From: an uncultured Holophagales bacterium
Lineage (GTDB): Bacteria > Acidobacteriota > Thermoanaerobaculia > Multivoradales > UBA5704
Assembly: GCA_963842525.1 (NCBI GenBank)
Contig: CAWJGT010000004.1
Coordinates: forward strand, 206,082-270,081
DNA length: 64,000 bases
Direction: 5' to 3'
The position numbers were made by a program, and so were the translations under genes. Under the pieces are notes generated by a model. It was not told where the DNA came from and searched no databases. It worked only from the letters and a program-made list of their open reading frames with translations. Of the stretch, positions 35,206 through 50,018 are shown in pieces (position 1 is the first letter of the stretch; each line of letters begins with the position of its first letter).

Positions 35206-36462
35206 ATGAGCCACCCGATTACCGAGGAGAGCCTGAGGCGCTTCGCTGCGAGGACCGCCTCTCCGGAGGAGGGCCGCACAATTGTGGCCCATCTTCTGAA
35301 GGGATGTTCGTCTTGTGCGAAGCGGCTGAGATCCCTCGAACGACCTGGTATACCGGATGGTGCTTACGATGCGATGTTCGCTCGATTGGAGAGAGCTTCT
35401 GCTTCTCACGGATCTACGAAGGTTCCGGGGGCCGCGGGGAATTCGAGAGAGCTGCTGGCCGAGTTGGATGCTCAACCTGAGGCTCGCCAAGAAATCCTGG
35501 TACGCAACAGCCGCCGGTACTGGTCCCCTGAGCTCGCCGAGTTACTGTGCGAGCGCAGCTACTTTCGACGCTTCGAAGACCCGCGGAGGGTGCTGCATTG
35601 GGCTCGGCTGGCCGTGCTGATCGGGGAGCATTTCGAAGAGCCGGGCTCCAGCAGAGAGGCACTCGCGGACGTGAGGGCACTCTGCTTCGCTCAATTGGGC
35701 ACTGCGCTTCGGATTTCGGGTGATCTAGAGGCCGCTGATCAGTCCATGATGACCGCGCGAAATTGGATGCGTCGAGGGACTGGCAATGCAGAGCTGAGGG
35801 CCAAGATCTATGGGCACCTCGCGTCCTTACGGACTAATCAATTCCGTTGCAATGAAGCCGAGCATCTCTACGCTCAGGCTGCTGAGATCTGGCGGGATCT
35901 GGGCAAGCCGCACATGCTAGCTAAAATCCTGATAGGACAGGCGATCGCTGTTCTCTACCGAGGTGACCCGGATAGTGCCCTCTCGCTCCTCATGGAGGCA
36001 ATGCCCAAAATCGACGGTTCCAATGACCCTCGTATGACGTTCGCTGCGTGTCACGCGGTGATTCGATGCCAGATCGAGCTCGGTCAAATAGAGGAGGCCT
36101 CGCTCAGATGGGTGGAGTTGAGGTCCCTTTACAGCAGGCTTAAAGATCCCATCCTGCACACCCGTGGGAAGTGGCTCGAAGGAAGGCTCATGATCGGACA
36201 AGGGATGATTTCCGCAGGCTTGAAACTCCTACAGGATGCGCGCGAGGAGCTGGCGCAGAAGGGACTTGAGTACGATGCTGCCCTCGTCGCCCTTGAAATC
36301 GCTGGCAGCTACATGGGACTCGGCCGGTCGGAGGAAGTGCGGCGTCTTTTGGCCGAGATTCTCCCGGTTTTCAGGAACCGCAAAGTCGAACGCTCGGCAC
36401 TCGCCTCGGTCCTCTTTCTTGGAAGAGTAGTGTCATGCGTTCCTTCAGCCTCTTCTCCCTGA
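35206..36462 (+). CDS. TPR protein with an N-terminal HLLxGCxxC (zf-HC2-like) domain
   Basis: HPITEESLRRF...AHLLKGCSSC, TPR-like helices, KWLEGR...DAALVALEIA. Homologous to 45539..46885 and visibly AT-richer than its flanks. Confidence 0.8.
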   Translation: MSHPITEESLRRFAARTASPEEGRTIVAHLLKGCSSCAKRLRSLERPGIPDGAYDAMFARLERASASHGSTKVPGAAGNSRELLAELDAQPEARQEILVRNSRRYWSPELAELLCERSYFRRFEDPRRVLHWARLAVLIGEHFEEPGSSREALADVRALCFAQLGTALRISGDLEAADQSMMTARNWMRRGTGNAELRAKIYGHLASLRTNQFRCNEAEHLYAQAAEIWRDLGKPHMLAKILIGQAIAVLYRGDPDSALSLLMEAMPKIDGSNDPRMTFAACHAVIRCQIELGQIEEASLRWVELRSLYSRLKDPILHTRGKWLEGRLMIGQGMISAGLKLLQDAREELAQKGLEYDAALVALEIAGSYMGLGRSEEVRRLLAEILPVFRNRKVERSALASVLFLGRVVSCVPSASSP

Positions 36463-36565
36463 TAAGTCGGCAAGCTTCTTGCTCTTATCCCTCTCCGAGA
36501 CGGAAGCCGCTGGAGGACAGCGGCTCCGGGAATCGCTGGCGGTGCGGCGCCAGGGGAGGGATGCT

Positions 36566-36841
36566 ATGAATCATCCGGTCTCGGAACACAGTCTGCAACG
36601 CTTTGCCGAGGGGACCTCTTCGTATGCGGAGAGCCGCTCGGTTGTCCTCCATCTGCTACAGGGCTGTCCGGAGTGCGCGGGTGCGGTGCAGTCCTACCTG
36701 CGTCCCGAGGTTCCGGCCATGGCCTATGACAGGGTCTTCGATCGGCTGCAACGGGTCCAGGAGGGCGCCAAGCTGTTGACCTTCCACAAGCCGCAGGCCC
36801 CGGCGCCGCGGCTTGAACGGCGATCGCGCGTCCGTTCGTGA
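36566..36841 (+). CDS. Small stand-alone HLLxGCxxC domain protein
   Basis: MNHPVSEHSLQRFAEGT...HLLQGCPEC...AYDRVFDRL aligns with the first ~65 aa of 35206..36462; GGAGG RBS. Confidence 0.75.
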   Translation: MNHPVSEHSLQRFAEGTSSYAESRSVVLHLLQGCPECAGAVQSYLRPEVPAMAYDRVFDRLQRVQEGAKLLTFHKPQAPAPRLERRSRVRS

Positions 36842-36880
36842 TCTGACACGATCTGACACACCGACGTGACACGTCCGTCA
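36840..36880. promoter_or_regulatory. TGACAC repeats, putative operator of the downstream TA pair
   Basis: GATCTGACAC twice in tandem, a third TGACAC at 36867 and an inverted GTCA at 36877. Confidence 0.4.
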
Positions 36881-36925
36881 GGTTGGAATCTGGGTTACGA
36901 TGCGGGCCTGACGGGAGCCCCTGCC

Positions 36926-37156
36926 ATGGCCCATCTGGTGCTGCACGACGTCGATCCCAAAGTCATCGAGGAGCTGCGCAAGCGGGCTGACCCGCACGGC
37001 CGCTCCATTGAGGACGAGGCGAAGGTTGTCCTCGAAGAGTCTCTCGGCGTGTCGCGGGCACGGGCGCTGCGCGCGGCGCGGCGCATCCGGGCTGAGATCC
37101 CCGGCCCGTTCAACGACAGCGCCGAGCTTCTGCGGCAGGACCGGGACCGCCGCTGA
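36926..37156 (+). CDS. FitA-like RHH antitoxin
   Basis: MAHLVLHDVD...LRKRA..HGRSIEDE...DSAELLRQDRDR; stop overlaps the toxin start. Confidence 0.85.
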   Translation: MAHLVLHDVDPKVIEELRKRADPHGRSIEDEAKVVLEESLGVSRARALRAARRIRAEIPGPFNDSAELLRQDRDRR

Positions 37157-37581
37157 TGATCCGCCATTACGTCGTCGACGCCAGCGTGGCGGCCAAGTGG
37201 TACTTCCAGGAGGAGCATTCGGACCGCGCCGATGCCCTCCTCGAGCAGAGCAACGAGATCCTCGCGCCGGACGTCCTGCTCGTCGAGGTCGCCACCTTGG
37301 CCTGGAAGCGGGTCCGGCGCGGCGAGATCAACGAGGCGACGGCGGACCGCATCGTCGCCGAGCTGCGCAAGGTTCCGTTCAACCTCCGGCCCACGGCCGA
37401 GCTGGTCTCGGCGGCCCTCCCCCTGGCTCTCCAGAACAGCCTGACCCTGTTTGACGGCTTCTACATCGCCCTCGCCGTCCAGTCCGGCTGCCCTTGGATC
37501 ACGGCGGACCGGCGCCTCTATGATTCCCTGCGCAACGGTCCGCTCGCCGAGCACGTCCTCTGGATCGGCGACTTCGCCTGA
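37156..37581 (+). CDS. vapC: PIN-domain VapC toxin
   Basis: VVDASVAAKW, E, FDGFYIALA and ITADRRL. Confidence 0.9.
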   Translation: MIRHYVVDASVAAKWYFQEEHSDRADALLEQSNEILAPDVLLVEVATLAWKRVRRGEINEATADRIVAELRKVPFNLRPTAELVSAALPLALQNSLTLFDGFYIALAVQSGCPWITADRRLYDSLRNGPLAEHVLWIGDFA

Positions 37582-41720: not shown

Positions 41721-44705
41721 CTACGCCACCGGCTTCAAATTCATGATCGGCATTTCCGGCCGGGTCCCACCGGCCACGGAGCCTGCGCAGACTCCGTTCC
41801 GCCCGCGGGTCTTGGCCCGGTAGAGCGCGAGGTCGGCTGCCTGAATGAGGGTTTCCGGCCGCTGGCCCTGCTCCGGGATCACGGCGGCGACGCCGAAGCT
41901 TGCGGTGACATGGCCCCGGGGAGTCGCCTCGTGCGGCAGCGCGAGCGCCTCGATCCCCTGGCGGAGCTGCTCGGCGAGCTCCAGCGCGCCGGGGAGGTTG
42001 GTGTCGGGCAGGAGCACCGCGAACTCCTCGCCGCCATACCGTGCGACCAGATCCCCGGGCCGCTTGATGGCCTCGGCCAGATAGCGCGCCAGGGCCTTCA
42101 GGCACAGGTCCCCTTCGGTATGGCCCCGGGTATCGTTCAACAGCTTGAAGTGGTCGAGGTCGAGGAGGACGAAGGCGATCGGCAGGCCCTGCCTCCGGGC
42201 GCGGCTCCATTCCTCCTCCAGCACCTGCTGCAGCCGGCGCCGGTTGGCGATGGCGGTGAGCTCATCCTGGTGCGACAGCTCCTGGAGCCGCGCGTTGGCC
42301 GCTTCGAGGTCGGTGGAGGTCCGGCGCAGCTCCTCGACCGTATGCCGCAGCTCTTCAGTCTGCGCGGTAACCCGGGCCTCCAGCCGCGCCGTCCGCAGGG
42401 CCAGGGTGCGGCTGCGGAGACCGCTGAAGCCGATCATTCCAAGGATCAACAGGAGGGCCCAGAGCGCAATCGCCCAGGACGTCTGGTACCAGGGCGGCAG
42501 GACGCGGAACGGCCACGAGGCCGCTTCGCTCACCTCGCCCAGGGGGCCGACCGTACGCACGTGGAAGGTGTAGTCGTCCGGCGGCAGCCGCGTCAGCTCG
42601 GTGAAGGGCTCCGCCGTGGGCTCGCCCCAGCCGGCATCGAGTGGCTCCAGGCGGGTCTGATAGCGCAGGCCGGCGCGGAAGGAGACCGGTCCGACCTCGA
42701 TCCGCAGGCGCCGCGCGTTCGACGGCAGCTCCGCCGCCGCAGGCGCGACACCCGGAGCGCCGCCGAACAGGACAGAGCCGCCACCCACGGTCATCCGCGA
42801 CAGGAGCGGCGCCGGCAGGGTCTCTCCCTTGCCGCGGATGCTCCCGGCGAAGCGAACGAGCCCATTTTCCGCCGCCAGCCAGACTACGCCGTCCGGCTCG
42901 GCCAGGATTTCGCCGATGCTGCGCACCGGCACCTCGATCGTGCGCGCCTCCGTCTCCCAGCCGTCGCCCTGGCGGACCGCCACAGACGGGGGGCTGGTAT
43001 TCAGCCAGAGGTTTCCCTCGGCGTCCAGGACAGCGAACGAGAATTCCTTGCCGAGAGCCGTAAAGTCCGGATCCTCGGCCAACGTTCCCTTCCGTTCGTC
43101 GAGACGAAACGTCTGCTTGCCGTTCGTCACGATGAGCCGGCTGCCGAGGCGCAGCACGTTCCTTGGCTCGGCCGGTTCGATCCGGCGCACCTGGGAACGC
43201 CCCCTCCGGGGCCATCCTGCCGGGATCTCCACGCGCGCCACGCCGTCGAGCGCGCTGCCCAGCCAGAGAACGCCGTCGTCCCTCTCGATGACCGTGCGCA
43301 CGTCGCTCGGCGCGCCCTCGACCTGTCCTTCCACGCGCCACTCCCGGCCTTCGCGGCGCAGCGCGAAGAGCCCCTTGTCCAATCCTGCCCACACGCGCTC
43401 CGGATCCTTCCGGGAGCGCGCGAGGACGTACACCGTGCTCCCCAGGCCGGGCACCTCGACGGCGTTCCCGTCGCGAAGCCAAACGAGCCCATACGCCGTA
43501 CCGACGAGGAGATCCTCTTCCATGGAGAGCAGGCTCCAGGCCGAGATCTTCACCTCCGGCACCGCGTGCATCCTGAGAGCCGGGCTCCCCGGAGTGGTGG
43601 TGAAGAGGCCGGCCGCGGTGGCGACCCAGAGCTCCCCCTGGTGCCGGGCCATCGAGTAGACGCTCCCCTGGAGCCCCAGACGCCGGTCGATGATCGACAG
43701 GCGCGAAGCGATTTCGATCCGTGCCAGCCCGTTGTTGAGAGCCAGCCAGAGTGCGCCTTCGCGGTCGATCACCGTGCCGTTCACAAAGTCGTCGGACAGC
43801 CCGGCCGACGAATCGATCACCTGATCCACCTCGCCATCCGGCTTCAGGAGCAGGAGGCCGCCCAGGATCGACCCCATCGCCAATCGCCCGTCGGCCAGGC
43901 GGCTTCCCGCGAGAAGCTTTTTCTCCGCGGCCCATCGCGACGCCTCGGGGGCGAACGGCACGCTCCGTCCGTTCTCCAGGAGGAAGAGCCCTTCGCCGCG
44001 GACGGACACGAGCAGCCTCTCCGCGTCCGACGGGCCCGTCGGCAGGATCAGGTCCACGCGCCGGTCGTGATACTCCTCTCCGCCGGGCACCGGCTCGAGG
44101 CGGGACCCGGCCAGCCGGAAGATCCCGGCGCGCGTCCAGACATAGACCGACCTCCCGACGTCGAAGCTCATCGCGTAGGGCCGGTCGCCCGGGAACGTGG
44201 CCACCGTGGTAAACCGGGCCCCGTCCCAGAGCAGAAGCCACCGTGTCGTCATGAAGGCGAAGCCCTCGGGCGTGGGATTGATCCGCATCGCCTGGCCGAG
44301 CTCCCGCTGCTCCGGAGGGAGAAGGCCGACGAGCGACTTGTACCGGAGCGCTCCGTCCGGGCCGGGCGTGAGGAGCCCGACCTCGTCGACGCCGCCGACC
44401 GCCACCTGTCCTCCCGGATTGCTGGCGATCGAGAAGCAGGTGCCTTTCTTCCCGACCGGGATCGTCCGCCACCAGGCGCCGTCGTAGACCAGGGCGCCGC
44501 CGGCGTTGGCCACATAGAGGATGCCTTGCGGATCGCGGGTGATGCCGTAGCTCTGCGTGTACGCGTCGGGAGGAGCGTACGTCTGGATCAGAGGGAATCC
44601 GCGCTCCGCGGTGGAGCGGGGAGCGGCCGCGGCCAGGGGGAGGCAGGCCAGCAGGAGCAGGCCGGCGAGAGAGCCGATGCAACGCGGACGGAAGCCAGGG
44701 CGCAT
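41721..44705 (-). CDS. Membrane diguanylate cyclase with a periplasmic beta-propeller/Y_Y_Y sensor
   Basis: Signal peptide, propeller repeats, VLPPWYQT + TM, coiled coil, DLDHFK..ND..GH..GD, RPGD I-site and RYGGEEF. Confidence 0.93.
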   Translation of the reverse strand: MRPGFRPRCIGSLAGLLLLACLPLAAAAPRSTAERGFPLIQTYAPPDAYTQSYGITRDPQGILYVANAGGALVYDGAWWRTIPVGKKGTCFSIASNPGGQVAVGGVDEVGLLTPGPDGALRYKSLVGLLPPEQRELGQAMRINPTPEGFAFMTTRWLLLWDGARFTTVATFPGDRPYAMSFDVGRSVYVWTRAGIFRLAGSRLEPVPGGEEYHDRRVDLILPTGPSDAERLLVSVRGEGLFLLENGRSVPFAPEASRWAAEKKLLAGSRLADGRLAMGSILGGLLLLKPDGEVDQVIDSSAGLSDDFVNGTVIDREGALWLALNNGLARIEIASRLSIIDRRLGLQGSVYSMARHQGELWVATAAGLFTTTPGSPALRMHAVPEVKISAWSLLSMEEDLLVGTAYGLVWLRDGNAVEVPGLGSTVYVLARSRKDPERVWAGLDKGLFALRREGREWRVEGQVEGAPSDVRTVIERDDGVLWLGSALDGVARVEIPAGWPRRGRSQVRRIEPAEPRNVLRLGSRLIVTNGKQTFRLDERKGTLAEDPDFTALGKEFSFAVLDAEGNLWLNTSPPSVAVRQGDGWETEARTIEVPVRSIGEILAEPDGVVWLAAENGLVRFAGSIRGKGETLPAPLLSRMTVGGGSVLFGGAPGVAPAAAELPSNARRLRIEVGPVSFRAGLRYQTRLEPLDAGWGEPTAEPFTELTRLPPDDYTFHVRTVGPLGEVSEAASWPFRVLPPWYQTSWAIALWALLLILGMIGFSGLRSRTLALRTARLEARVTAQTEELRHTVEELRRTSTDLEAANARLQELSHQDELTAIANRRRLQQVLEEEWSRARRQGLPIAFVLLDLDHFKLLNDTRGHTEGDLCLKALARYLAEAIKRPGDLVARYGGEEFAVLLPDTNLPGALELAEQLRQGIEALALPHEATPRGHVTASFGVAAVIPEQGQRPETLIQAADLALYRAKTRGRNGVCAGSVAGGTRPEMPIMNLKPVA

Positions 44706-45008
44706 AGGAATCAGGACTCGAACCCGGAGTCTACTCTCGCTCTAGAGTGTCGGGGAAGGCGAGAACGTTTCGCGAGGCGTTAGAATCCCGCAGCCGTCCC
44801 TGCCTGGCGGCCATGCAATGAGCCTCGAAGACGTCGACCTGGCCCTCCGTGAGGAGTTCCCCTTCCTGCACAGCGGCGATCCGACCCGTTGTCGAATCGC
44901 GAAACTTCGATTACGCTTCTCCGGGTCGGGAGGTCCCGGCTCGTAGAAGTATCTCGAACGCCCCGGTTCCAGATTGGATGAAATGGTAGGGTACGCTAAA
45001 CTATTGAT

Positions 45009-45500
45009 ATGACCATCGAAGACGAGGTACGCCGGGCTACCAAGCTGCTCGAGACCGTCATGCAGGCGGCCGGGCTCACCCGCAAGGATCTCGACCAGCG
45101 CCTTGGCGCCGGTCCAGGCTATATCAGCCAGGTCCTCACCGGCAGGATGGAGCTGAAGTTCCGCCACGTCCTGGCCATCCTTCGCGCTCTCGACGTAGAT
45201 CCCGGTATCTTCTTCCAGACCCTCTATCCCGACTCCCGCCCGGTCAGCGACCAGGCCGTGATGGAGGAGTTCCTGCGCCGGTTCCAGCGCCTCGGCTTCA
45301 ATAGCAGCGGCCCGGTGCCGCCGTCTCCTCCGGCTCCCGCCGCGTCCTCGTCGCCTGTAAAGCCGACCGTCGACCCCGGGGAGCTCGAGCGCCTGGTCCG
45401 CAAGGCCGTGCGGGAGGCTCTGTCCGACGAGGATCTGCAGCAGGACAGGGGGGAGTCGAACGTGCCTGAAGGCGACAAGCCGAGACGAAATCGGGGCTGA
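45009..45500 (+). CDS. XRE-family HTH protein
   Basis: GLTRKDLDQRLGAGPGYISQVLTGRMELKFRHVLAIL, Pro-rich linker and short C-terminal helix. Confidence 0.85.
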   Translation: MTIEDEVRRATKLLETVMQAAGLTRKDLDQRLGAGPGYISQVLTGRMELKFRHVLAILRALDVDPGIFFQTLYPDSRPVSDQAVMEEFLRRFQRLGFNSSGPVPPSPPAPAASSSPVKPTVDPGELERLVRKAVREALSDEDLQQDRGESNVPEGDKPRRNRG

Positions 45501-45538
45501 CGAGAGCTAGAGGCCCCACGCGATGAGGAGTGCGGAGC

Positions 45539-46885
45539 CTACTTCCGCCGCGCGGGCTCGAGGCGCTCGAGCTCGGCGGCGACGGCTTGGAGCAGCGCTA
45601 CAGTGGCCTGCTGCTTTTCGCAGGCCTCGCGCAGCATGAGAAGCGCGCCGATGGCCTCGCGCCGCATCTTGCGTGCCCGGAAGATCGCCACGGTCTGGTC
45701 GATCAGCTCCCGGATCTCGCAGGTCCGGTCCTGGCGCAGCCAAACCGCCGCGAGGTCGAGCGCGACGAGGGCGGCTTCGCAGGGGAGCTCGCCCCTCTCG
45801 AAGCCGGCCCGCACTTCGAGGAACGCCTCCTCGGCCCTAGCGTCGTCCCCCAGGGCCGCCGCGATCCGGCCTTCCACCCAGCGGGCCTTGAGCTGCTCGA
45901 AGCGCTCGCCGTACGCCGCATAGAGCTCGCGGCTGAGGTCGATCAGCTTGCTTGCCTCGGCGAAGCGCGAGCCGTCGACGAGGAAGTTGATGAGGCTGTG
46001 CACGCCGACCAGGACGAGCCCCGGATCGCGCCGGGGATCGATCAGGCGCAACCCCTCGCCGATCAGGCGGATGGCCGCGTCGGCGTCCAGCGCGTAGCCG
46101 GCCGAAATACCCTTGCTGATCAAGGTCCGTCCGGCCCAGTGCTCGTCGCCTTGTGCCAGGTAGATCGCATGGGTCCAGTCGAGGAGCCGAAAGGCTTCGT
46201 CGAAGCGGCGCTGGCCGGTGTAGACGGAGGCGCTGAGGTCCATGATGCGGGCGAGGAGCAGCGGGTCTCCCGTGCCCAGTCCGGCCCGCTCGAGGGCGCG
46301 GGCGAGGTCGGTCTCCGCACCGGGCAGGTCGCCCGCCACGCGGCGGGTGTTGCCGAGCTCGGCCAGAGCGCGGGCCTGGAGGTCGACGATGGCCCCGGCC
46401 TCTTCGGCGGTCTCCGCGGTGAGGCGCTCCGCGACGGTCACCGCCAGCCGCGCCAGGAGCACGGCGCCCTCGGGGTCGTTGTGGCGCAGGCTCCGGCACT
46501 GCTCCAGGAACGTCTCGCAGCGCAGCCGGTCGCGCGCGCTCCGTGCGGCGGGGGAGAGGGGAGCCGGCGGTGGGACTTCCCGCGGCCGGGCCTGCTCGTG
46601 CCGCGCCTCGTCCCGCTCCTGGACACGGGCCGCTGCGAGCCGCCGGACGGCGGCGAAGGCCCGGAAGAGGGGAAAGTCGTACTCCGTGCCACTGCCGGCG
46701 GCAGGCTCGGGAAGAGTGCCACGGCCGAACACCACCCTCGCGAGGGGGGCCATCTGCTCCTTGCAGGCCGCGCAGCCGGCGAGCAGGTGGACGACGATGG
46801 GAACCGCCTCGCGGGGCGTCAGACCTCCCCGCAGAAAACGGTCCAGCGCCGCGGGGGTGGGGTGCTCACGGTCTCCTCCGGCCAT
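45539..46885 (-). CDS. TPR protein with an N-terminal HLLxGCxxC (zf-HC2-like) domain
   Basis: HPTPAALDRF...VHLLAGCAAC, AELGNTRRVAGDL, RWVEGRIA, EAALVALDLA; GGAGG RBS. Confidence 0.85.
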   Translation of the reverse strand: MAGGDREHPTPAALDRFLRGGLTPREAVPIVVHLLAGCAACKEQMAPLARVVFGRGTLPEPAAGSGTEYDFPLFRAFAAVRRLAAARVQERDEARHEQARPREVPPPAPLSPAARSARDRLRCETFLEQCRSLRHNDPEGAVLLARLAVTVAERLTAETAEEAGAIVDLQARALAELGNTRRVAGDLPGAETDLARALERAGLGTGDPLLLARIMDLSASVYTGQRRFDEAFRLLDWTHAIYLAQGDEHWAGRTLISKGISAGYALDADAAIRLIGEGLRLIDPRRDPGLVLVGVHSLINFLVDGSRFAEASKLIDLSRELYAAYGERFEQLKARWVEGRIAAALGDDARAEEAFLEVRAGFERGELPCEAALVALDLAAVWLRQDRTCEIRELIDQTVAIFRARKMRREAIGALLMLREACEKQQATVALLQAVAAELERLEPARRK

Positions 46886-46954
46886 CCCGATTCCCTCCTG
46901 AGCTTCAAATGAGACCGCCTCATTGTCGCACAGAACGTGGTGGACGCCGGAAGA

Positions 46955-47272
46955 TCAGCGCCGGCCGTTGGGATCGAGAGCCGGACCGTAGTCTCTGCCA
47001 GAAGCCTGAAGGGACTCCGGCTCTCCGACTCCATCATGGGAGACATCGGCTGTGGGCGCGGCGCTCACCTGGCTCTGCCCGAGCAGACCGCCCCCGCTCC
47101 AGATCTGCCCAATCCATTGCGAGAGCCCGGACAGCCATCCGATCTCGACGCTCTCGATGGCCGGCGAGGCCCCCTCGCCCTGCGGAGCGGCCGACGCCGG
47201 CATGCCCGTCAGGCAGAGCACGGCGGCCAGGACGAAGGCGGGGGTCAGGGAGCGAAACGTCTTGTACCGCAT
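46955..47272 (-). CDS. Small secreted protein (105 aa) ending in DYGPALDPNGRR; candidate peptide precursor
   Basis: GAGGAGGAG RBS, Sec signal peptide ending ASA, WLSGLSQWIGQIW amphipathic segment, low-complexity spacer and terminal GxxxDPNG. Confidence 0.75.
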   Translation of the reverse strand: MRYKTFRSLTPAFVLAAVLCLTGMPASAAPQGEGASPAIESVEIGWLSGLSQWIGQIWSGGGLLGQSQVSAAPTADVSHDGVGEPESLQASGRDYGPALDPNGRR

Positions 47273-47508
47273 GGATCTCCTCCTCTCCGCGAGCCAACGG
47301 GAGCCTCCATGGAGCCCGTGCTCGCGGAAGTAAACGGATTATGGAGCTAGATTTCACTAGATTCTCAAGCATCCATCTGGAAATAACCTTTCGAAAGAAG
47401 AGTAGCATGTGGTGGCGCACCCCAGACCTGGCGAGGAGAGGGGATCTGCGGCAAAAGATCTCGGGAGCCGCCCTCTCCAAGACGGACTCGGAGACGGCTT
47501 TCACCGCC

Positions 47509-48921
47509 TCAAGGTCGGCGACGCGCCGGTCCCCTGGGCACCAGCCGCCAGACGAACGCATCGCTCTTGCCCGCCGCCTTGACGGGCTCGGCCCCGGTCT
47601 CCGGCAGCGCGTCCGTCTGCCCCTTGAAGGCGCCGGCGACATAGGGCGTCTCGTCGGCCCCGAGCGCGACGGCCAGCGCCTCGAGGCCGTCCGACGCGCT
47701 CAGGCGGAGACTCCAGATCTCCTGTCCCTGCGGCGAGTACTCGACGGCGAAGGCGAAATCGTCCCTGCCGCCGAGATGGCCGGTGGCCACCACGGTCCCT
47801 TCCCGGTTGCCCGCCACCGCAACCCCCTGGTCGGACCCATTGCCTCCGAGCTGCTGGGCCCAGGCGAGGCGTCCTGTGCCCTCGAGCCGCATCACGAACG
47901 CGTCGCCCCCTCCCGCGGCGGCCCGGGAGAAGGAGCCCGGCCCGGAGTCGAAGTCGACCGTGCCCGCGAACCGGCCGGTCAGCGCGAGGCCGCCCGAGCC
48001 CGCGGCGGAAGCCGACCCGAGAGATTCCTCCTGCGGGCCTCCGATCCGGCCGGAGGAGACGAGCGTGCCGGCGGCGTCGAGCCGCAGCACGAAGATGTCC
48101 GACTTCCCCGCGCTCTGCAGCGCGAGGCTGCCTCCGCCAGGGCCGATCCCTGCTGTCTCCTCGAAGTTGCCGGCCACCCAGACCTCGCCGTTGCGGCCGG
48201 CCGCGACCCCGCGCGCGTCGTCGTCCTTGAACCCGCCGATCCGCCGTGCCCAGGTGAGCGCGCCGGCGGCATCGAAACGGGCGAGGAAGGCGTCGGTCTT
48301 CCCGGCGCTGTCGAACAGCTCCGTCGAGCCCTGGAAGGACCCCGCCACCCATGTCTCACCCTGGGATCCGGCGGCCACCCGCATTCCGGCGTCGCCGAGC
48401 TTCCCTCCCAGGCGGCGGGCCCAGGCGAGGTCCCCGTCCGGCGTCAGGCGGAGGAGGAAGGCGTCGGAGCTGCCGGCGCTCGTGAGCTCGGTGCGGCCCG
48501 GGCCCGGGTCGAAGTCCACCGTCCCGAAGAAGGCCCCGGTGGCCACGACGCTCCCCGTGCTGTCGACCGCGATGGCGCGCCCCTCGTCCGCACCGGGCCC
48601 GCCGAAGGCCCGCGCCCAGAGGACCTGCCCCTGGCGGTCGAGCTTCGCCACGAAGACGTCCGTCAGCCCGGACCCCGCCAGGGGGATCGTGCCGAAGGCG
48701 GTGCTCCCCTGGAAGTGGCCGGTCACATAGGAGCTGCCCTGGCCGTCCACCGCGATCCCCAGGGCAGTCTCACGATCGGGGCCGCCGAGCGCGCGCGGCC
48801 AGGCGCTCACGGGACCGCCGGCGGTATCTGCAGCAGACAGCGAGGCAGACCCCGCGAGATGCAGGCCGAGGAGCAGGACGATCCCGCCAGTGGTCCATTT
48901 TCTGCTTGAAGCTGCGGGCAT
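47509..48921 (-). CDS. Secreted SBBP-repeat beta-propeller protein
   Basis: Repeated IAVD..G..YVTG.F.G / D.FV.KLD..G..LWA motifs; signal peptide. Confidence 0.88.
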   Translation of the reverse strand: MPAASSRKWTTGGIVLLLGLHLAGSASLSAADTAGGPVSAWPRALGGPDRETALGIAVDGQGSSYVTGHFQGSTAFGTIPLAGSGLTDVFVAKLDRQGQVLWARAFGGPGADEGRAIAVDSTGSVVATGAFFGTVDFDPGPGRTELTSAGSSDAFLLRLTPDGDLAWARRLGGKLGDAGMRVAAGSQGETWVAGSFQGSTELFDSAGKTDAFLARFDAAGALTWARRIGGFKDDDARGVAAGRNGEVWVAGNFEETAGIGPGGGSLALQSAGKSDIFVLRLDAAGTLVSSGRIGGPQEESLGSASAAGSGGLALTGRFAGTVDFDSGPGSFSRAAAGGGDAFVMRLEGTGRLAWAQQLGGNGSDQGVAVAGNREGTVVATGHLGGRDDFAFAVEYSPQGQEIWSLRLSASDGLEALAVALGADETPYVAGAFKGQTDALPETGAEPVKAAGKSDAFVWRLVPRGPARRRP

Positions 48922-49088: not shown

Positions 49089-50018
49089 ATGAGGATGCCG
49101 CAGCCCCCCCGGTTGTGGGTTCGTGCCCTTCAACGGATCGCTCCGGACGCTGCGCCCTGTCCGATGCCTTTCGTGGTCGGAGTGGCCCGTTCGGGGACGA
49201 CGCTGCTCCGGTTGATGCTCGATGCGCATCCGGACCTGGCGATCCCTCATGAAACCCATTTCATCCCGGCGGCCATCGCCCTCGAGGCCTCCGGGTCCGC
49301 CAGCCGCGAGGCCTTCCAGGAGCTGCTCACCACGTATCCGACCTGGAAGGATCTTGCGACGCCGGCGGCGGCGCTGTGGCAGGTTCTTCTGGACGTGGAG
49401 CCGTTTTCCGTCGCCGAAGGGCTGCGGTCGTTCTACCGGCTCTATGCCGGCCGGCGCGGCAAGCGCCGCTTTGGCGACAAGACGCCCCCGTACTGTCTGC
49501 ACCTGGCCGGCATCCGCCGCATCCTGCCGGAAGCGTGCGCCGTCCACATCGTCCGGGACGGCCGGGATGTGGCTCTCTCGCTGCGGCCGCTCTGGTTCGC
49601 GCCGGGCACAGACATGGCAAGCCTGGCCCGGCAATGGTCGAGCCAGATCGCCGAAGCGCGGCGGCAGGGCGAGATCGCGGGAGGGTACCTGGAGGTCCGC
49701 TTCGAGGAGCTGATCGCCGATCCGGAAGGGGAATTACAGCGGATCTGCCGCCACATCGAGCTTTCCTTCCACCGCGGGATGTTGCGGTATCACCGCCGGG
49801 CGCGTTCGCGCCTGGAGGAGGTCGAGAGCCGGTACGCGCCCGATGGCACGCTGATCATCAGCAAAGAAGAGCGGTTGCACCTGCACCGGCTCACCAGCGG
49901 ACCGCCCGAGCCCGCACGCACTGAGCGCTGGCGCCGCGAGATGACCCGGGACGAGCGGCGGGCCTATGAACGAATCGCCGGACCGCTGCTGGAAGAATTG
50001 GGGTATTCGACACGGTAG
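49089..50018 (+). CDS. Sulfotransferase (Sulfotransfer_3-like)
   Basis: FVVGVARSGTTLL (PAPS loop), GDKTP and HIVRDGRDVALS. Confidence 0.9.
   Translation: MRMPQPPRLWVRALQRIAPDAAPCPMPFVVGVARSGTTLLRLMLDAHPDLAIPHETHFIPAAIALEASGSASREAFQELLTTYPTWKDLATPAAALWQVLLDVEPFSVAEGLRSFYRLYAGRRGKRRFGDKTPPYCLHLAGIRRILPEACAVHIVRDGRDVALSLRPLWFAPGTDMASLARQWSSQIAEARRQGEIAGGYLEVRFEELIADPEGELQRICRHIELSFHRGMLRYHRRARSRLEEVESRYAPDGTLIISKEERLHLHRLTSGPPEPARTERWRREMTRDERRAYERIAGPLLEELGYSTR

Follow-up and report, generated by a model that had tools for sequence, protein, structure and literature searches.

The hallmarks of RRNPP systems are an exported pro-peptide gene lying beside the gene of a cytoplasmic receptor, and a C-terminal TPR sensor in that receptor (consulted parts of PMC7425212). 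These systems have been described from Bacillota, and the introduction of PMC10075063 treats genetically encoded peptide signals that cytoplasmic TPR receptors read as a speciality of Bacillota and of their phages and plasmids. In the Alo systems (Voichek et al. 2020), secretion, processing and activity of the peptides have been shown by experiment, and a count of more than 25 pairs per genome is termed a record number (consulted parts of PMC7425212). Here we describe a locus in a 64,000-nt stretch of DNA from an uncultured acidobacterium (the window), where a gene for a small, predicted secreted precursor adjoins genes for a TPR protein and an XRE-type protein. Taken together, peptide/TPR pairs of this kind have the look of an extensive, hitherto undescribed family of peptide signals in diderm bacteria, and we consider the chances evenly balanced that the locus belongs to a big set of lineage-specific peptide/receptor cassettes that function analogously to RRNPP pairs. 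Full-text literature searches, which covered articles without their supplements, found no description of this peptide/TPR family.

The precursor gene (46955-47272, minus strand; GC3 0.81) encodes 105 aa and was recognised as an open reading frame with a GGAGG-rich ribosome-binding site, GGAGAGGAGGAG, that ends 5 nt from the ATG. Its product is laid out as a signal peptide, a Trp-rich helix, a variable linker, one C-terminal decapeptide unit and a final RR. The predicted Sec signal peptide (residues 1-28; 47189-47272, minus strand) was assigned by reading of the sequence and by hydropathy: K/R residues are followed by a hydrophobic core and by A-S-A ahead of residue 29, after which cleavage would occur, and the Kyte-Doolittle maximum in a 19-residue window was 1.72, at residues 12-30. 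The decapeptide DYGPALDPNG (residues 94-103; 46964-46993, minus strand), followed by RR, stands out in the conservation profile and is the candidate signal. The ORF, its strong ribosome-binding site, the signal peptide and the DYGPALDPNG-RR end were all found where a preliminary description of this DNA had placed them. The Trp-rich amphipathic helix, IGWLSGLSQWIGQIW (residues 44-58; 47099-47143, minus strand), is common to the peptide family; a simple pheromone model gives such a conserved helix nothing to do, which is a point against a signalling reading.

The precursor had no match in Pfam or NCBIfam, and the sole return from the ESM Atlas was a set of unnamed Acidobacteriota clusters of about 100 aa. 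Peptide orthologs were collected from 8 loci and from 157 database matches, and any name given to them was hypothetical protein. Among the matches listed, DP[ND]G was kept in all 120 peptide orthologs, a signal-peptide-like N-terminus was detected by regex in 116 of the 120 and the W motif in 104, and over the same set the Trp-rich helix, which is found in paralogs too, was moderately conserved. The C-terminal decapeptide tail was the most conserved stretch of the mature protein, the linker being variable and gappy, and D100, P101, G103 and W53 were invariant in 8 orthologs (from several genera in the case of D100, P101 and G103). The tail is therefore conserved, as the idea of a C-terminal peptide signal had supposed.

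The 105-aa ORF belongs to a set of about 50 paralogs, small and predicted to be secreted and mostly about 60-110 aa long, in a genome of 9.95 Mb that source names assign to Thermoanaerobaculia. Each member of the family combines a signal peptide with a Trp-rich helix and ends in 1-4 units of the form [D/E]-x-G-x-x-[I/L/M]-D-P-[N/D/H/S]-G, a consensus built from 107 units in 51 paralogs in which 0-6 residues follow the motif. With these roughly 50 paralogs, and with DP[ND]G endings throughout the listed orthologs, the remark in the preliminary description that small proteins ending in DPNG or DPDG recur in this lineage proved correct; the family counts are lower bounds, as the first regexes missed DPLG, DDNG and DPHG endings and long tails. 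At the variable positions of the unit, identity was 49% within one precursor vs 19% between precursors, a within-precursor similarity that was reached by none of 2000 permutations, and the unit flavours track clades of the TPR tree, peptides and TPR proteins having diversified together. A large subclass of the peptides has paired Cys around each unit. No conserved cleavage sites were identified, which is a further point against a signalling reading.

The peptide stop codon is separated by 69 nt from the start of the TPR gene (45539-46885, minus strand), whose 448-aa product consists of a Zn-finger-like N-terminus, a linker and an all-helical TPR superhelix. The N-terminal domain (residues 1-55; 46721-46885, minus strand) contains H8 together with the cluster H33-LLAG-C38-AA-C41, and the TPR sensor domain (residues 113-448; 45542-46549, minus strand) is supported by hhalign and VIA-align. 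Pfam TPR_12 matched the protein at 31.6 bits (cut-off 30.1), and the AF2 model consists of all-helical repeats with a pLDDT of 87.1. Hydropathy gave neither a signal peptide nor a membrane-like segment (maximum 1.34), and the protein is predicted to be cytoplasmic and all-helical. It was present in 28 of 31 related genomes, and its paralogs occupy 94 loci in this genome. Throughout 46 orthologs H33, C38 and C41 were invariant and H8 was at least 90% conserved. Pfam zf-HC2 (PF13490) found nothing in the N-terminal 140 aa of the window protein, even at E<=10; it matched 3 of the 46 orthologs weakly (best E 0.0027), and one paralog exceeded its cut-off (32.5 bits vs 22.2).

The XRE-type gene (45009-45500, plus strand; 163 aa) is convergent with the TPR gene, 38 nt apart from it, and encodes a Cro/C1-type HTH (HTH_31, 32.8 bits, cut-off 27; HTH_3, 31.2 bits, cut-off 23). 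Its ortholog is convergent in 8 of 9 relatives' loci. The 69-bp gap, the co-oriented TPR gene with an HLLxGCxxC N-terminus and the convergent XRE gene all agree with what had first been described.

A regex search of the whole genome for short ORFs with the motif at their end returned 46 candidates, 37 of them family members by eye, and 35 of these 37 lay within 1 kb of a TPR paralog. In the curated set this held for 48 of 51 peptides vs 2.8% expected, with 37 of the 48 situated upstream of the TPR paralog on the same strand; the 48 linked pairs include two pairs of identical copies at contig ends. An XRE paralog was found within 2.5 kb in 11 of the 51 cassettes. In other genomes, 60 loci matched the TPR protein over its full length and extended far enough upstream, and the peptide was upstream in 56 of them; an XRE homolog was present in 45 and was downstream and convergent in 42. 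In three MAGs the peptide and TPR genes carry neighbouring NCBI locus tags. The linkage proposed in the preliminary description is thus far above chance in this genome (48/51 peptides) as well as elsewhere (peptide 56/60, convergent XRE 42/60). Zn-finger-TPR genes without a detectable peptide also occur (13 of 27 by the first regex, with 2 later rescued) and are a point against a signalling reading; two TPR homologs in a sister family were likewise without a peptide.

Clustering of the flanks of 40 cassettes recovered XRE genes at 11 loci, a protein of about 135 aa and unknown function at 7 loci and a pterin-dehydratase-like protein at 4. These flanks contained no recurring exporter, protease or importer, which again counts against a signalling reading, and no recurring modifying enzyme, C39-type peptidase, ABC exporter or immunity-like membrane protein. 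Elsewhere the genome encodes three Opp-type binding proteins (SBP_bac_5), one of them about 3 kb from a cassette, and given these proteins uptake of a peptide is possible.

The N-termini of the TPR proteins are modular. The TPR domains of the Zn-finger and HTH types are homologous (hhalign E 2e-56 over 329 columns), and an XRE HTH is fused to the TPR domain in 8 of 34 paralogs by Pfam and in 19 of 94 by a local HMM, with 13 of these 19 adjoining Cys-loop peptides. One further TPR paralog has a C-terminal HTH_8 domain. At locus L064, an ECF sigma gene (759-1481) overlaps a Zn-finger-TPR gene (1447-2820), and a peptide-like ORF comes after the latter. Of 47 matches to PF04542, none fell on the window's contig, where no ECF sigma gene was found. 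The preliminary description had offered two outputs for the TPR protein, DNA binding by the separate HTH protein or an anti-sigma role of the N-terminal domain, and both are indirectly supported, by the 19 of 94 paralogs with a fused XRE HTH and by the one paralog that overlaps an ECF sigma gene. A gene-fusion argument for the standalone XRE protein was considered and dropped: its similarity to the fused HTH domain is just generic (E 6e-4), so that the fusions do not argue that XRE and TPR proteins act together.

Directly 5' of the peptide start codon, a 57-nt block (47275-47331, minus strand) is conserved, with invariant columns across 8 orthologous loci. By nhmmer it occurs once in the genome, and it is a candidate operator, promoter or leader. 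An RNA structure in this block was rejected, the RNAalifold energy being -6.8 kcal/mol with no covariation support, and Rfam returned nothing for the conserved upstream block at E<=1. The two CTAGATT copies that the preliminary description had singled out in the promoter region do form a direct repeat, AATCTAG-N3-AATCTAG (47347-47363, minus strand), which is unique in the window (1 match vs 0.01 expected from shuffles); when 7 orthologous upstream regions were aligned with it, none contained the repeat, and a functional role for it is not supported. Scans for sigma-70 promoters and terminators over 44700-47700 found nothing. One soil RNA-library run gave three contigs of 93-97% identity, all of them confined to the TPR gene (45725-46785); because these matches are contigs, they are no proof of transcription, and the lack of a contig over the peptide gene carries no information.

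In structure comparisons by VIA-align, the window TPR model was closest to LGN (LGN/NuMA, 3ro2; Z 27.1, rmsd 3.6 A, 295 residues); its LGN matches ranged over Z 24-27, followed by RapI (22.0), NprR (21.9) and RapJ (21.4), with phage Rap also present at Z 21-22; these values are to be read knowing that repeat proteins score high Z generally. For the HTH-type TPR model, phage Rap (21.9) and RapJ (21.8) came out on top, tied with LGN (21.1). The window fold is about 5 Z units closer to LGN than to any RRNPP receptor, which is a point against an RRNPP reading. The best-matching TPR superhelices were solved with bound peptides, and on the strength of the model the likeness to LGN would indicate only a long TPR superhelix of that kind. 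Foldseek ranking by E-value alone put generic TPR proteins first and Rap at ranks 11-27, and PlcR, AimR, Rgg and PrgX were not among the matches listed in the structure searches. At the sequence level, an HMM profile run against PDB sequences gave generic TPR matches only (RapF E 0.45, DdvA E 1.6). Neither RNPP_C nor Rgg_C, curated Pfam families of RRNPP receptors, was found at E<=0.01 in the window protein, in 34 paralogs or in 45 of 46 orthologs, and one TPR ortholog matched Rgg_C at E 0.007. The only NCBIfam AimR match was to the HTH of the XRE protein, at 18.9 bits vs a cut-off of 70. Of the RRNPP-analogous circuit first suggested for this locus, the tail conservation and gene linkage were borne out, and no RRNPP sequence family was matched.

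Covariation between peptides and TPR domains, which the preliminary description had raised, could not be told apart from phylogeny controls in an exploratory scan of 95 pairs, another point against a signalling reading. An apparent signal, in which 16 of the 25 top TPR columns fell in A helices vs 108 of 292 in the background (p 0.004), was discarded, with controls giving 8-14 of 25. A weak covariation hint links unit positions -3 and -2 with TPR residues about 249-268 and 292-304.

If these cassettes signal, Sec would export the precursor, and the C-terminal unit D-x-G-x-x-[ILM]-D-P-x-G (DYGPALDPNG here, with 1-4 copies in paralogs) would be set free and come back into the cell. There it may bind the groove of its cognate cytoplasmic TPR domain and alter the action of the receptor's N-terminal output module. 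In the window cassette, the zinc-finger domain might then hold or release a transcription factor, either the XRE protein next to it or an ECF sigma factor whose gene lies elsewhere, and in a sister clade the fused XRE HTH would bind DNA directly. The variable positions of the unit would be each cassette's own address. In a diderm such a peptide would need to make two outer-membrane crossings, which is a point against a signalling reading. A fuller version, which we put forward tentatively and hold to be somewhat less than an even bet, is a network of about 50 parallel peptide channels per genome in soil Thermoanaerobaculia, where an address of 4-5 residues on the D-x-G-x-x-[ILM]-D-P-x-G scaffold is read by cytoplasmic TPR receptors that diversify along with it and have three interchangeable outputs; these may be a zinc finger of anti-sigma-like type, an XRE HTH (fused or in a partner protein) or a Fis-type HTH.

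The same gene arrangement could arise without any feedback if the TPR, Zn-finger and XRE proteins respond to a different cytoplasmic cue and turn on the neighbouring gene for a secreted cargo. That cargo might work in the periplasm or at the cell surface, be adhesin-like, or act on membranes through its Trp-rich helix, and the peptide would never meet the TPR domain. A regulator and the gene it controls would be expected to show linkage and co-duplication just as much, conservation of the Trp-rich amphipathic helix suggests a role of the protein itself, and both the cassette-specific conserved block upstream of the peptide gene and the TPR paralogs without a peptide fit such an arrangement. 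We nevertheless regard it as unlikely, since it leaves unexplained why conservation peaks in a short C-terminal unit and the remainder of the mature protein drifts, why precursors contain 1-4 copies of that unit in a flavour of their own, and why each of about 50 similar cargo genes should have its own co-diversifying TPR sensor.

Other explanations start from the small protein or from the zinc finger. The paired Cys around the units in a large subclass, the several unit copies per precursor and the diversifying, lineage-specific character of the family would suit secreted bioactive peptides, which could be bacteriocin- or RiPP-like with C-x-x-D-P-x-G-x-C disulfide loops or could be calcium-binding turn peptides, the TPR protein being a dedicated regulator, chaperone or immunity factor. 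The Sec-type leader, the transcription-type N-termini of the TPR proteins and the 40 flanks, in which modifying enzymes, C39-type peptidases or ABC exporters and immunity-like proteins did not recur, make this improbable. Alternatively, the Zn-finger-TPR protein might be a soluble anti-sigma factor that binds unexported precursor in the cytoplasm, for example through its signal peptide or Trp-rich helix, and so reports secretion load or serves as a targeting factor. Such a role is in keeping with the conserved ZAS-like motif, with the one paralog in a sigma/anti-sigma arrangement and with two proteins made in the cytoplasm from genes 69 nt apart; yet a general secretion sensor would not need about 50 copies with diversified C-terminal units, and with no ECF sigma gene (PF04542) on the window's contig we think it very improbable.

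Should the fuller network version be true, peptide quorum sensing of the RRNPP-like kind would for the first time be known from beyond Bacillota and from a diderm, and it would include the first pheromone-gated zinc-finger module of the anti-sigma type. Such a genome would have about double the pairs of the published record; the copy number here is above the >25 pairs named in the consulted parts of PMC7425212. If the signalling reading holds, peptide quorum sensing or kin discrimination would extend to diderms, signalling would explain some of the very heavy load of regulatory genes in these genomes of 7-10 Mb, and synthetic biology could draw on a natural library of orthogonal peptide/receptor pairs, about 50 in each genome, in which peptide and receptor are short and soluble. 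The genomic logic of RRNPP systems is seen here in uncultured, abundant soil Acidobacteriota, together with an output domain that is new for such receptors and with a peptide that is repeated and built on a scaffold. If the signalling reading is false, a large, unannotated and strongly conserved gene pair still needs explanation.

Among described proteins, the TPR domain of LGN/Pins is the closest structure, and the titles of the matched entries identify them as complexes with partner peptide segments; unlike the window protein, LGN/Pins is a eukaryotic polarity protein, without functional relation to it and with a sequence identity of 15-18%. The N-terminus resembles the ZAS proteins (zf-HC2; RsrA, ChrR, DdvA) in its conserved His and its His/Cys-x2-Cys cluster, and among the paralogs one exceeds the zf-HC2 cut-off and one overlaps the end of an ECF sigma gene. 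The canonical ZAS spacing is H-x3-C-x2-C, whereas the window protein has H-x4-C-x2-C, a TPR C-terminal part, no transmembrane segment and no adjacent sigma gene. As in RRNPP systems (Rap/Phr, NprR/NprX, PlcR/PapR, PrgX, Rgg/SHP, AimR/AimP), a small gene for a putatively exported precursor adjoins a cytoplasmic TPR gene, the HTH(XRE)+TPR architecture is present (in 19 paralogs), Rap and NprR rank high in the fold comparisons (Z 20-22) and there are many paralogous pairs per genome. Unlike those systems, the host is a diderm acidobacterium, the N-terminus of the window protein is Zn-finger-like rather than an HTH or a Rap-type domain, and the precursors carry a Trp-rich helix with 1-4 copies of a common decapeptide scaffold; the peptide gene lies upstream of the receptor gene or on the opposite strand, in contrast to most RRNPP operons, which counts against the likeness. 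The Alo systems of Paenibacillaceae were established by experiment, whereas the present system is a predicted one, and its 48 linked pairs differ from Alo in phylum, cell envelope, peptide scaffold and receptor N-termini. With Alo it nonetheless shares the character of a strongly expanded family of TPR receptors and pro-peptides found by genomic context, not through homology to known RRNPP members (consulted parts of PMC7425212).

The small gene of the cassette (46955-47272, minus strand), recognized as an open reading frame with its ribosome-binding site (RBS), encodes a predicted secreted precursor of 105 aa. The purine-rich RBS GGAGAGGAGGAG ends 5 nt from the ATG, and the N-terminus has a basic n-region followed by a hydrophobic core and then A-S-A, with a Kyte-Doolittle maximum of 1.72 over a 19-residue window. 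The protein ends with the decapeptide DYGPALDPNG (46964-46993, minus strand) and RR. On the same strand, 69 nt downstream, begins the gene for a 448-aa zinc-finger-TPR protein (45539-46885, minus strand), which carries H33-LLAG-C38-AA-C41 near its N-terminus, lacks a membrane-like segment (hydropathy maximum 1.34), and has TPR_12 as its sole Pfam family above cut-off. An XRE-type HTH gene (45009-45500, plus strand; 163 aa) converges on it. The region reads as in the preliminary description, from the open reading frame, RBS and DPNG tail to the TPR and XRE genes. Neither the 105-aa protein nor the TPR protein matched any NCBIfam model, and the 105-aa protein matched no Pfam model.

The genes around the cassette encode a 994-aa Reg_prop/Y_Y_Y/GGDEF diguanylate cyclase (41721-44705, minus strand), a secreted SBBP beta-propeller protein (47509-48921, minus strand) and a sulfotransferase (49089-50018, plus strand); of the three, SBBP alone recurs, at a single ortholog locus (L003). 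Three contigs from a soil RNA-seq library, 93-97% identical, fall on a close relative's TPR gene (window 45725-46785); they are no demonstration that the TPR gene is transcribed, and the peptide gene is covered by none of the three. The window also holds a second zinc-finger-TPR paralog (35206-36462, plus strand; 418 aa, motif HLLKGCSSC), near which no peptide ORF was detected. It is directly followed by a 120-aa ORF with the zinc-finger N-terminal domain only (36479-36841, plus strand; HLLQGCPEC), perhaps a free-standing domain or else a truncated copy. At 36866-37581 (plus strand), a 96-aa ORF and a 141-aa ORF overlap and by eye have the look of a VapB/VapC-type antitoxin and PIN toxin.

Across eight orthologous loci from several genera, the upstream small ORF was kept with an overall identity of 26-39% and with W53, D100, P101 and G103 invariant. 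The convergent XRE gene was kept in 8/9 relatives' loci (47-72% identity). When each species was represented by one genome, 78 loci came up, and 60 of them were kept as full-length matches with at least 450 nt upstream: a DPxG ORF lay upstream on the same strand in 56/60, and an XRE homolog was present in 45/60, downstream and convergent in 42 of those 45. A profile of the eight peptide orthologs found 157 proteins at E<=0.01, called 'hypothetical protein' wherever they were named. Among the 120 matches listed, 116 were signal-peptide-like, 104 had the W motif and 50 ended at the G of the motif. The proposed conservation of the DPNG tail was borne out, as DP[ND]G was found in 120/120 of these listed matches (DPNG in 109, DPDG in 11), always in the last 45 residues. 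Along the protein, these orthologs are most conserved in the tail; the signal peptide is also well conserved and the Trp helix moderately so, whereas the linker varies and has many gaps.

The upstream region had been noted for a CTAGATT repeat. This element, AATCTAG-N3-AATCTAG at 47347-47363, is indeed present and occurs once in the window against 0.01 expected, but it is not conserved in the orthologous loci. The 57-nt block that immediately precedes the peptide's ATG (47275-47331, minus strand) has invariant columns across the eight orthologous loci and exceeds most of the coding sequence in conservation; it carries imperfect inverted repeats with CCATGG as core. RNAalifold gave no convincing structure for the block and Rfam no match. 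As nhmmer found one match only in the genome, the block is specific to the window's ortholog group. Its conservation makes it a better operator or leader candidate than the non-conserved AATCTAG repeat; it may serve the XRE protein as operator, or be a promoter that depends on a sigma factor.

The peptide belongs to a family within its own genome. A strict genome-wide scan for open frames with DP[ND]G no more than 4 residues from the stop gave 47 hits, most of which share one anatomy: a signal peptide, an amphipathic stretch rich in Trp (for example LWSFLSAIW), a low-complexity linker, and one to four copies of a C-terminal unit. A looser scan, blind to neighbours, gave 46 candidates, 37 of them family members by eye, and with variants added we curated a set of 51, which is biased in that it came partly from scanning beside TPR genes. 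The DPNG/DPDG-ending small proteins that the preliminary description had named as recurrent in this lineage are plentiful here, at 37 members by eye and 51 curated. Later scans added variants (DPLG or DDNG endings; a motif with 18 more residues after it) as well as two additional DPNG-stop sites, so the family counts are lower bounds. The 51 include two identical-copy pairs near contig ends (C9:3995-4408 and C18:2594-3007; C18:42469-42825 and C19:528567-528923), each the product of recent duplication or of redundancy in the assembly. Across 21 genomes from the family, DPNG codons followed by T[AG][AG] occurred 133 times, whereas the reversed control pattern occurred 15 times.

Together the 51 proteins contain 107 units, which follow the consensus [D/E]-x-G-x-x-[I/L/M]-D-P-[N/D/H/S]-G, of which DYGPALDPNG is exactly one copy. 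Numbered around D-P-x-G, D or E occupies position -6 in 90/107 units, G occupies position -4 in 88/107, and one of I, L and M occupies position -1 in 93/107. One unit was found in 15 proteins, two in 17, three in 18 and four in one; the final G is the protein end in 25/51. A large subclass has cysteines around each unit, G-C-x-x-D-P-x-G-x-C.

With the window TPR protein as tblastn query, we found 94 merged loci in the genome. Nearly every peptide lies beside one: 35/37 members of the neighbour-blind list were less than 1 kb from a TPR locus, as were 48/51 of the curated set within 1 kb, compared to the 2.8% of the genome that is that close. Of the curated peptides, 37 lie upstream on the same strand, eight downstream-facing on the opposite strand, and three upstream on the opposite strand. 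An XRE paralog was found within 2.5 kb in 11/51 cassettes against 1% expected. The suggested peptide-TPR-XRE linkage is thus above chance in this genome and holds elsewhere as well (peptide in 56/60 loci, convergent XRE in 42/60).

We also clustered all called genes around 40 cassettes. The recurring families were TPR (37 loci), XRE (11), a protein of about 135 aa (7) and a pterin-4a-carbinolamine-dehydratase-like protein (4). The ~135-aa protein has no Pfam family and a conserved ...RNE.LV.FG..P.R.R... (loci L017, L024, L025, L027, L032, L039 and L047). No recurring exporter, protease, modifying enzyme or importer was found in these flanks. The genome has three Opp-type (SBP_bac_5) binding-protein genes, one of which (C9:403765-404823, minus strand) lies about 3 kb from a peptide/TPR/XRE cassette (C9:407994-409882).

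The TPR proteins themselves proved to be modular. In the N-terminal domain, H33, C38 and C41 are invariant among 46 orthologs and H8 nearly so, a His/Cys pattern like that of zinc-binding anti-sigma domains; the canonical anti-sigma zinc motif has one residue fewer between His and Cys, and the TPR family has the extra one. Pfam zf-HC2 did not match the window TPR protein, matched weakly in 3/46 orthologs, and passed the cut-off in one paralog (32.5 bits vs 22.2). In 8/34 paralogs scanned with Pfam, an N-terminal XRE-type HTH replaces the zinc finger. One of the 34 carries a C-terminal Fis-type HTH_8 (L041:3652-4881, plus strand), and an HTH-type homolog from the database (P0192) has GGDEF fused to the TPR domain. 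Family alignments of the two types matched each other with an hhalign E of 2e-56 over 329 columns, and judged by sequence the TPR sensor domain is common to both. A rapidly built maximum-likelihood tree of 59 TPR domains gathers the HTH type into one clade (15 HTH rows and two unclassed; SH-aLRT 99) nested among zinc-finger types; the tree is midpoint-rooted and gives no direction of change.

This architecture tracks the peptide class. The 94 loci comprise 19 of the HTH type (local HMM), 27 with the zinc finger (regex) and 48 others that are fragments or unclassed. Cys-loop peptides on the opposite strand accompany 13/19 HTH-TPR genes and a linear peptide 0/19; 14/27 zinc-finger-TPR genes have a same-strand upstream peptide, linear in 12 of those 14. 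Some Cys-loop arrays place one peptide gene between two opposite-strand HTH-TPR genes (for example C7:90941-94388, C9:1870552-1873964 and C14:51540-57768), and in the C14 array three TPR genes alternate with three peptide genes. The sole cassette found with a sigma/anti-sigma layout is a four-gene run of an ECF sigma gene, a zinc-finger-TPR gene, an IDDNG-ending peptide-like ORF and a second ECF sigma gene (C34:43373-46503, equal to L064:759-3889), in which an ECF-type sigma gene (regions 2 and 4) overlaps the TPR start by 35 nt. On the window's contig, PF04542 had no match, so that all 47 sigma-70-family candidates of the genome lie on other contigs.

At the variable unit positions, identity was 49% within one precursor and 19% between precursors; 0/2000 permutations reached the observed within-precursor value. 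Unit flavours go with TPR clades, such as an x-M-D-P-x-G clade, a ...GSILDPNGRP pair and a C-I-D-P-N-G pair. Cassettes duplicate and diverge as units; contact between peptide and TPR protein does not follow from the flavour pattern. An A-helix enrichment in mutual information (16/25 top columns, 95 pairs) was dropped as evidence, as control traits behave similarly.

The assembly comprises 9.95 Mb in 34 contigs with a G+C content of 67.8%. Homologs of both proteins, where named, come from metagenome-assembled genomes of Thermoanaerobaculia or Acidobacteriota, a diderm phylum. The TPR family is present in 28/31 relatives searched, with at least 54 matches in each of 5/5 same-genus genomes. In an even phylum sample of 151 genomes, a TPR match at E<=1e-20 was found in only four: the genome itself, two further members of its order and another from its class.

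Together, these data establish the secreted peptide, zinc-finger-TPR and XRE genes as a conserved triad that belongs, as one branch, to a very large family. Its members have a TPR sensor in common, connect it to differing transcription outputs, and with few exceptions lie beside a gene for a secreted protein whose C-terminal unit is repeated and flavour-specific. The main rival to a signalling role is a regulator next to the secreted cargo it regulates. Such an arrangement accounts for the linkage, but it leaves unexplained why the C-terminal unit of the secreted partner is conserved, repeated and flavour-specific, and why each peptide has one sensor. The simplest model covering all of the data is an RRNPP-like circuit of peptide and receptor, and we would give it about an even chance of being correct. 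Sources name these proteins as hypothetical, TPR-repeat or HTH-domain proteins, and our full-text literature search found no published description of the peptide/TPR family. Confirmed peptide-TPR binding would make the system of high interest.

Structural models show the sensor as a TPR superhelix. The window TPR protein (pLDDT 87.1) is modelled with 16 helices over residues 112-442, a less confident N-terminal domain and disorder at residues 54-71. The best VIA-align match of its TPR domain was LGN/NuMA (Z 27.1, rmsd 3.6 A, 295 residues), followed by a second tier of RapI (Z 22.0), NprR (21.9 and 21.4), RapJ-PhrC (21.4) and a phage Rap-pheromone complex (21.3). The HTH-type model (pLDDT 90.4) was topped by phi3T Rap (21.9) and RapJ (21.8), tied with LGN (21.1), RapF (21.1) and NprR (20.9). 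Z scores of this size between repeat proteins are no proof of common descent. We do not claim RRNPP membership, because the window protein has another module in place of a domain that defines the group, none of the RRNPP sequence families was matched, and the fold comparison does not clearly favour either side (LGN at 27.1 ahead of RapI at 22.0 for the window model, LGN tied with Rap for the HTH type). Published work presents peptide systems of the RRNPP type as a Bacillota feature (PMC10075063) and regards more than 25 pairs in one genome as a record (PMC7425212). LGN, Rap and NprR, the structures closest to these sensors, share the long TPR superhelix, and many of the solved structures include a bound peptide.
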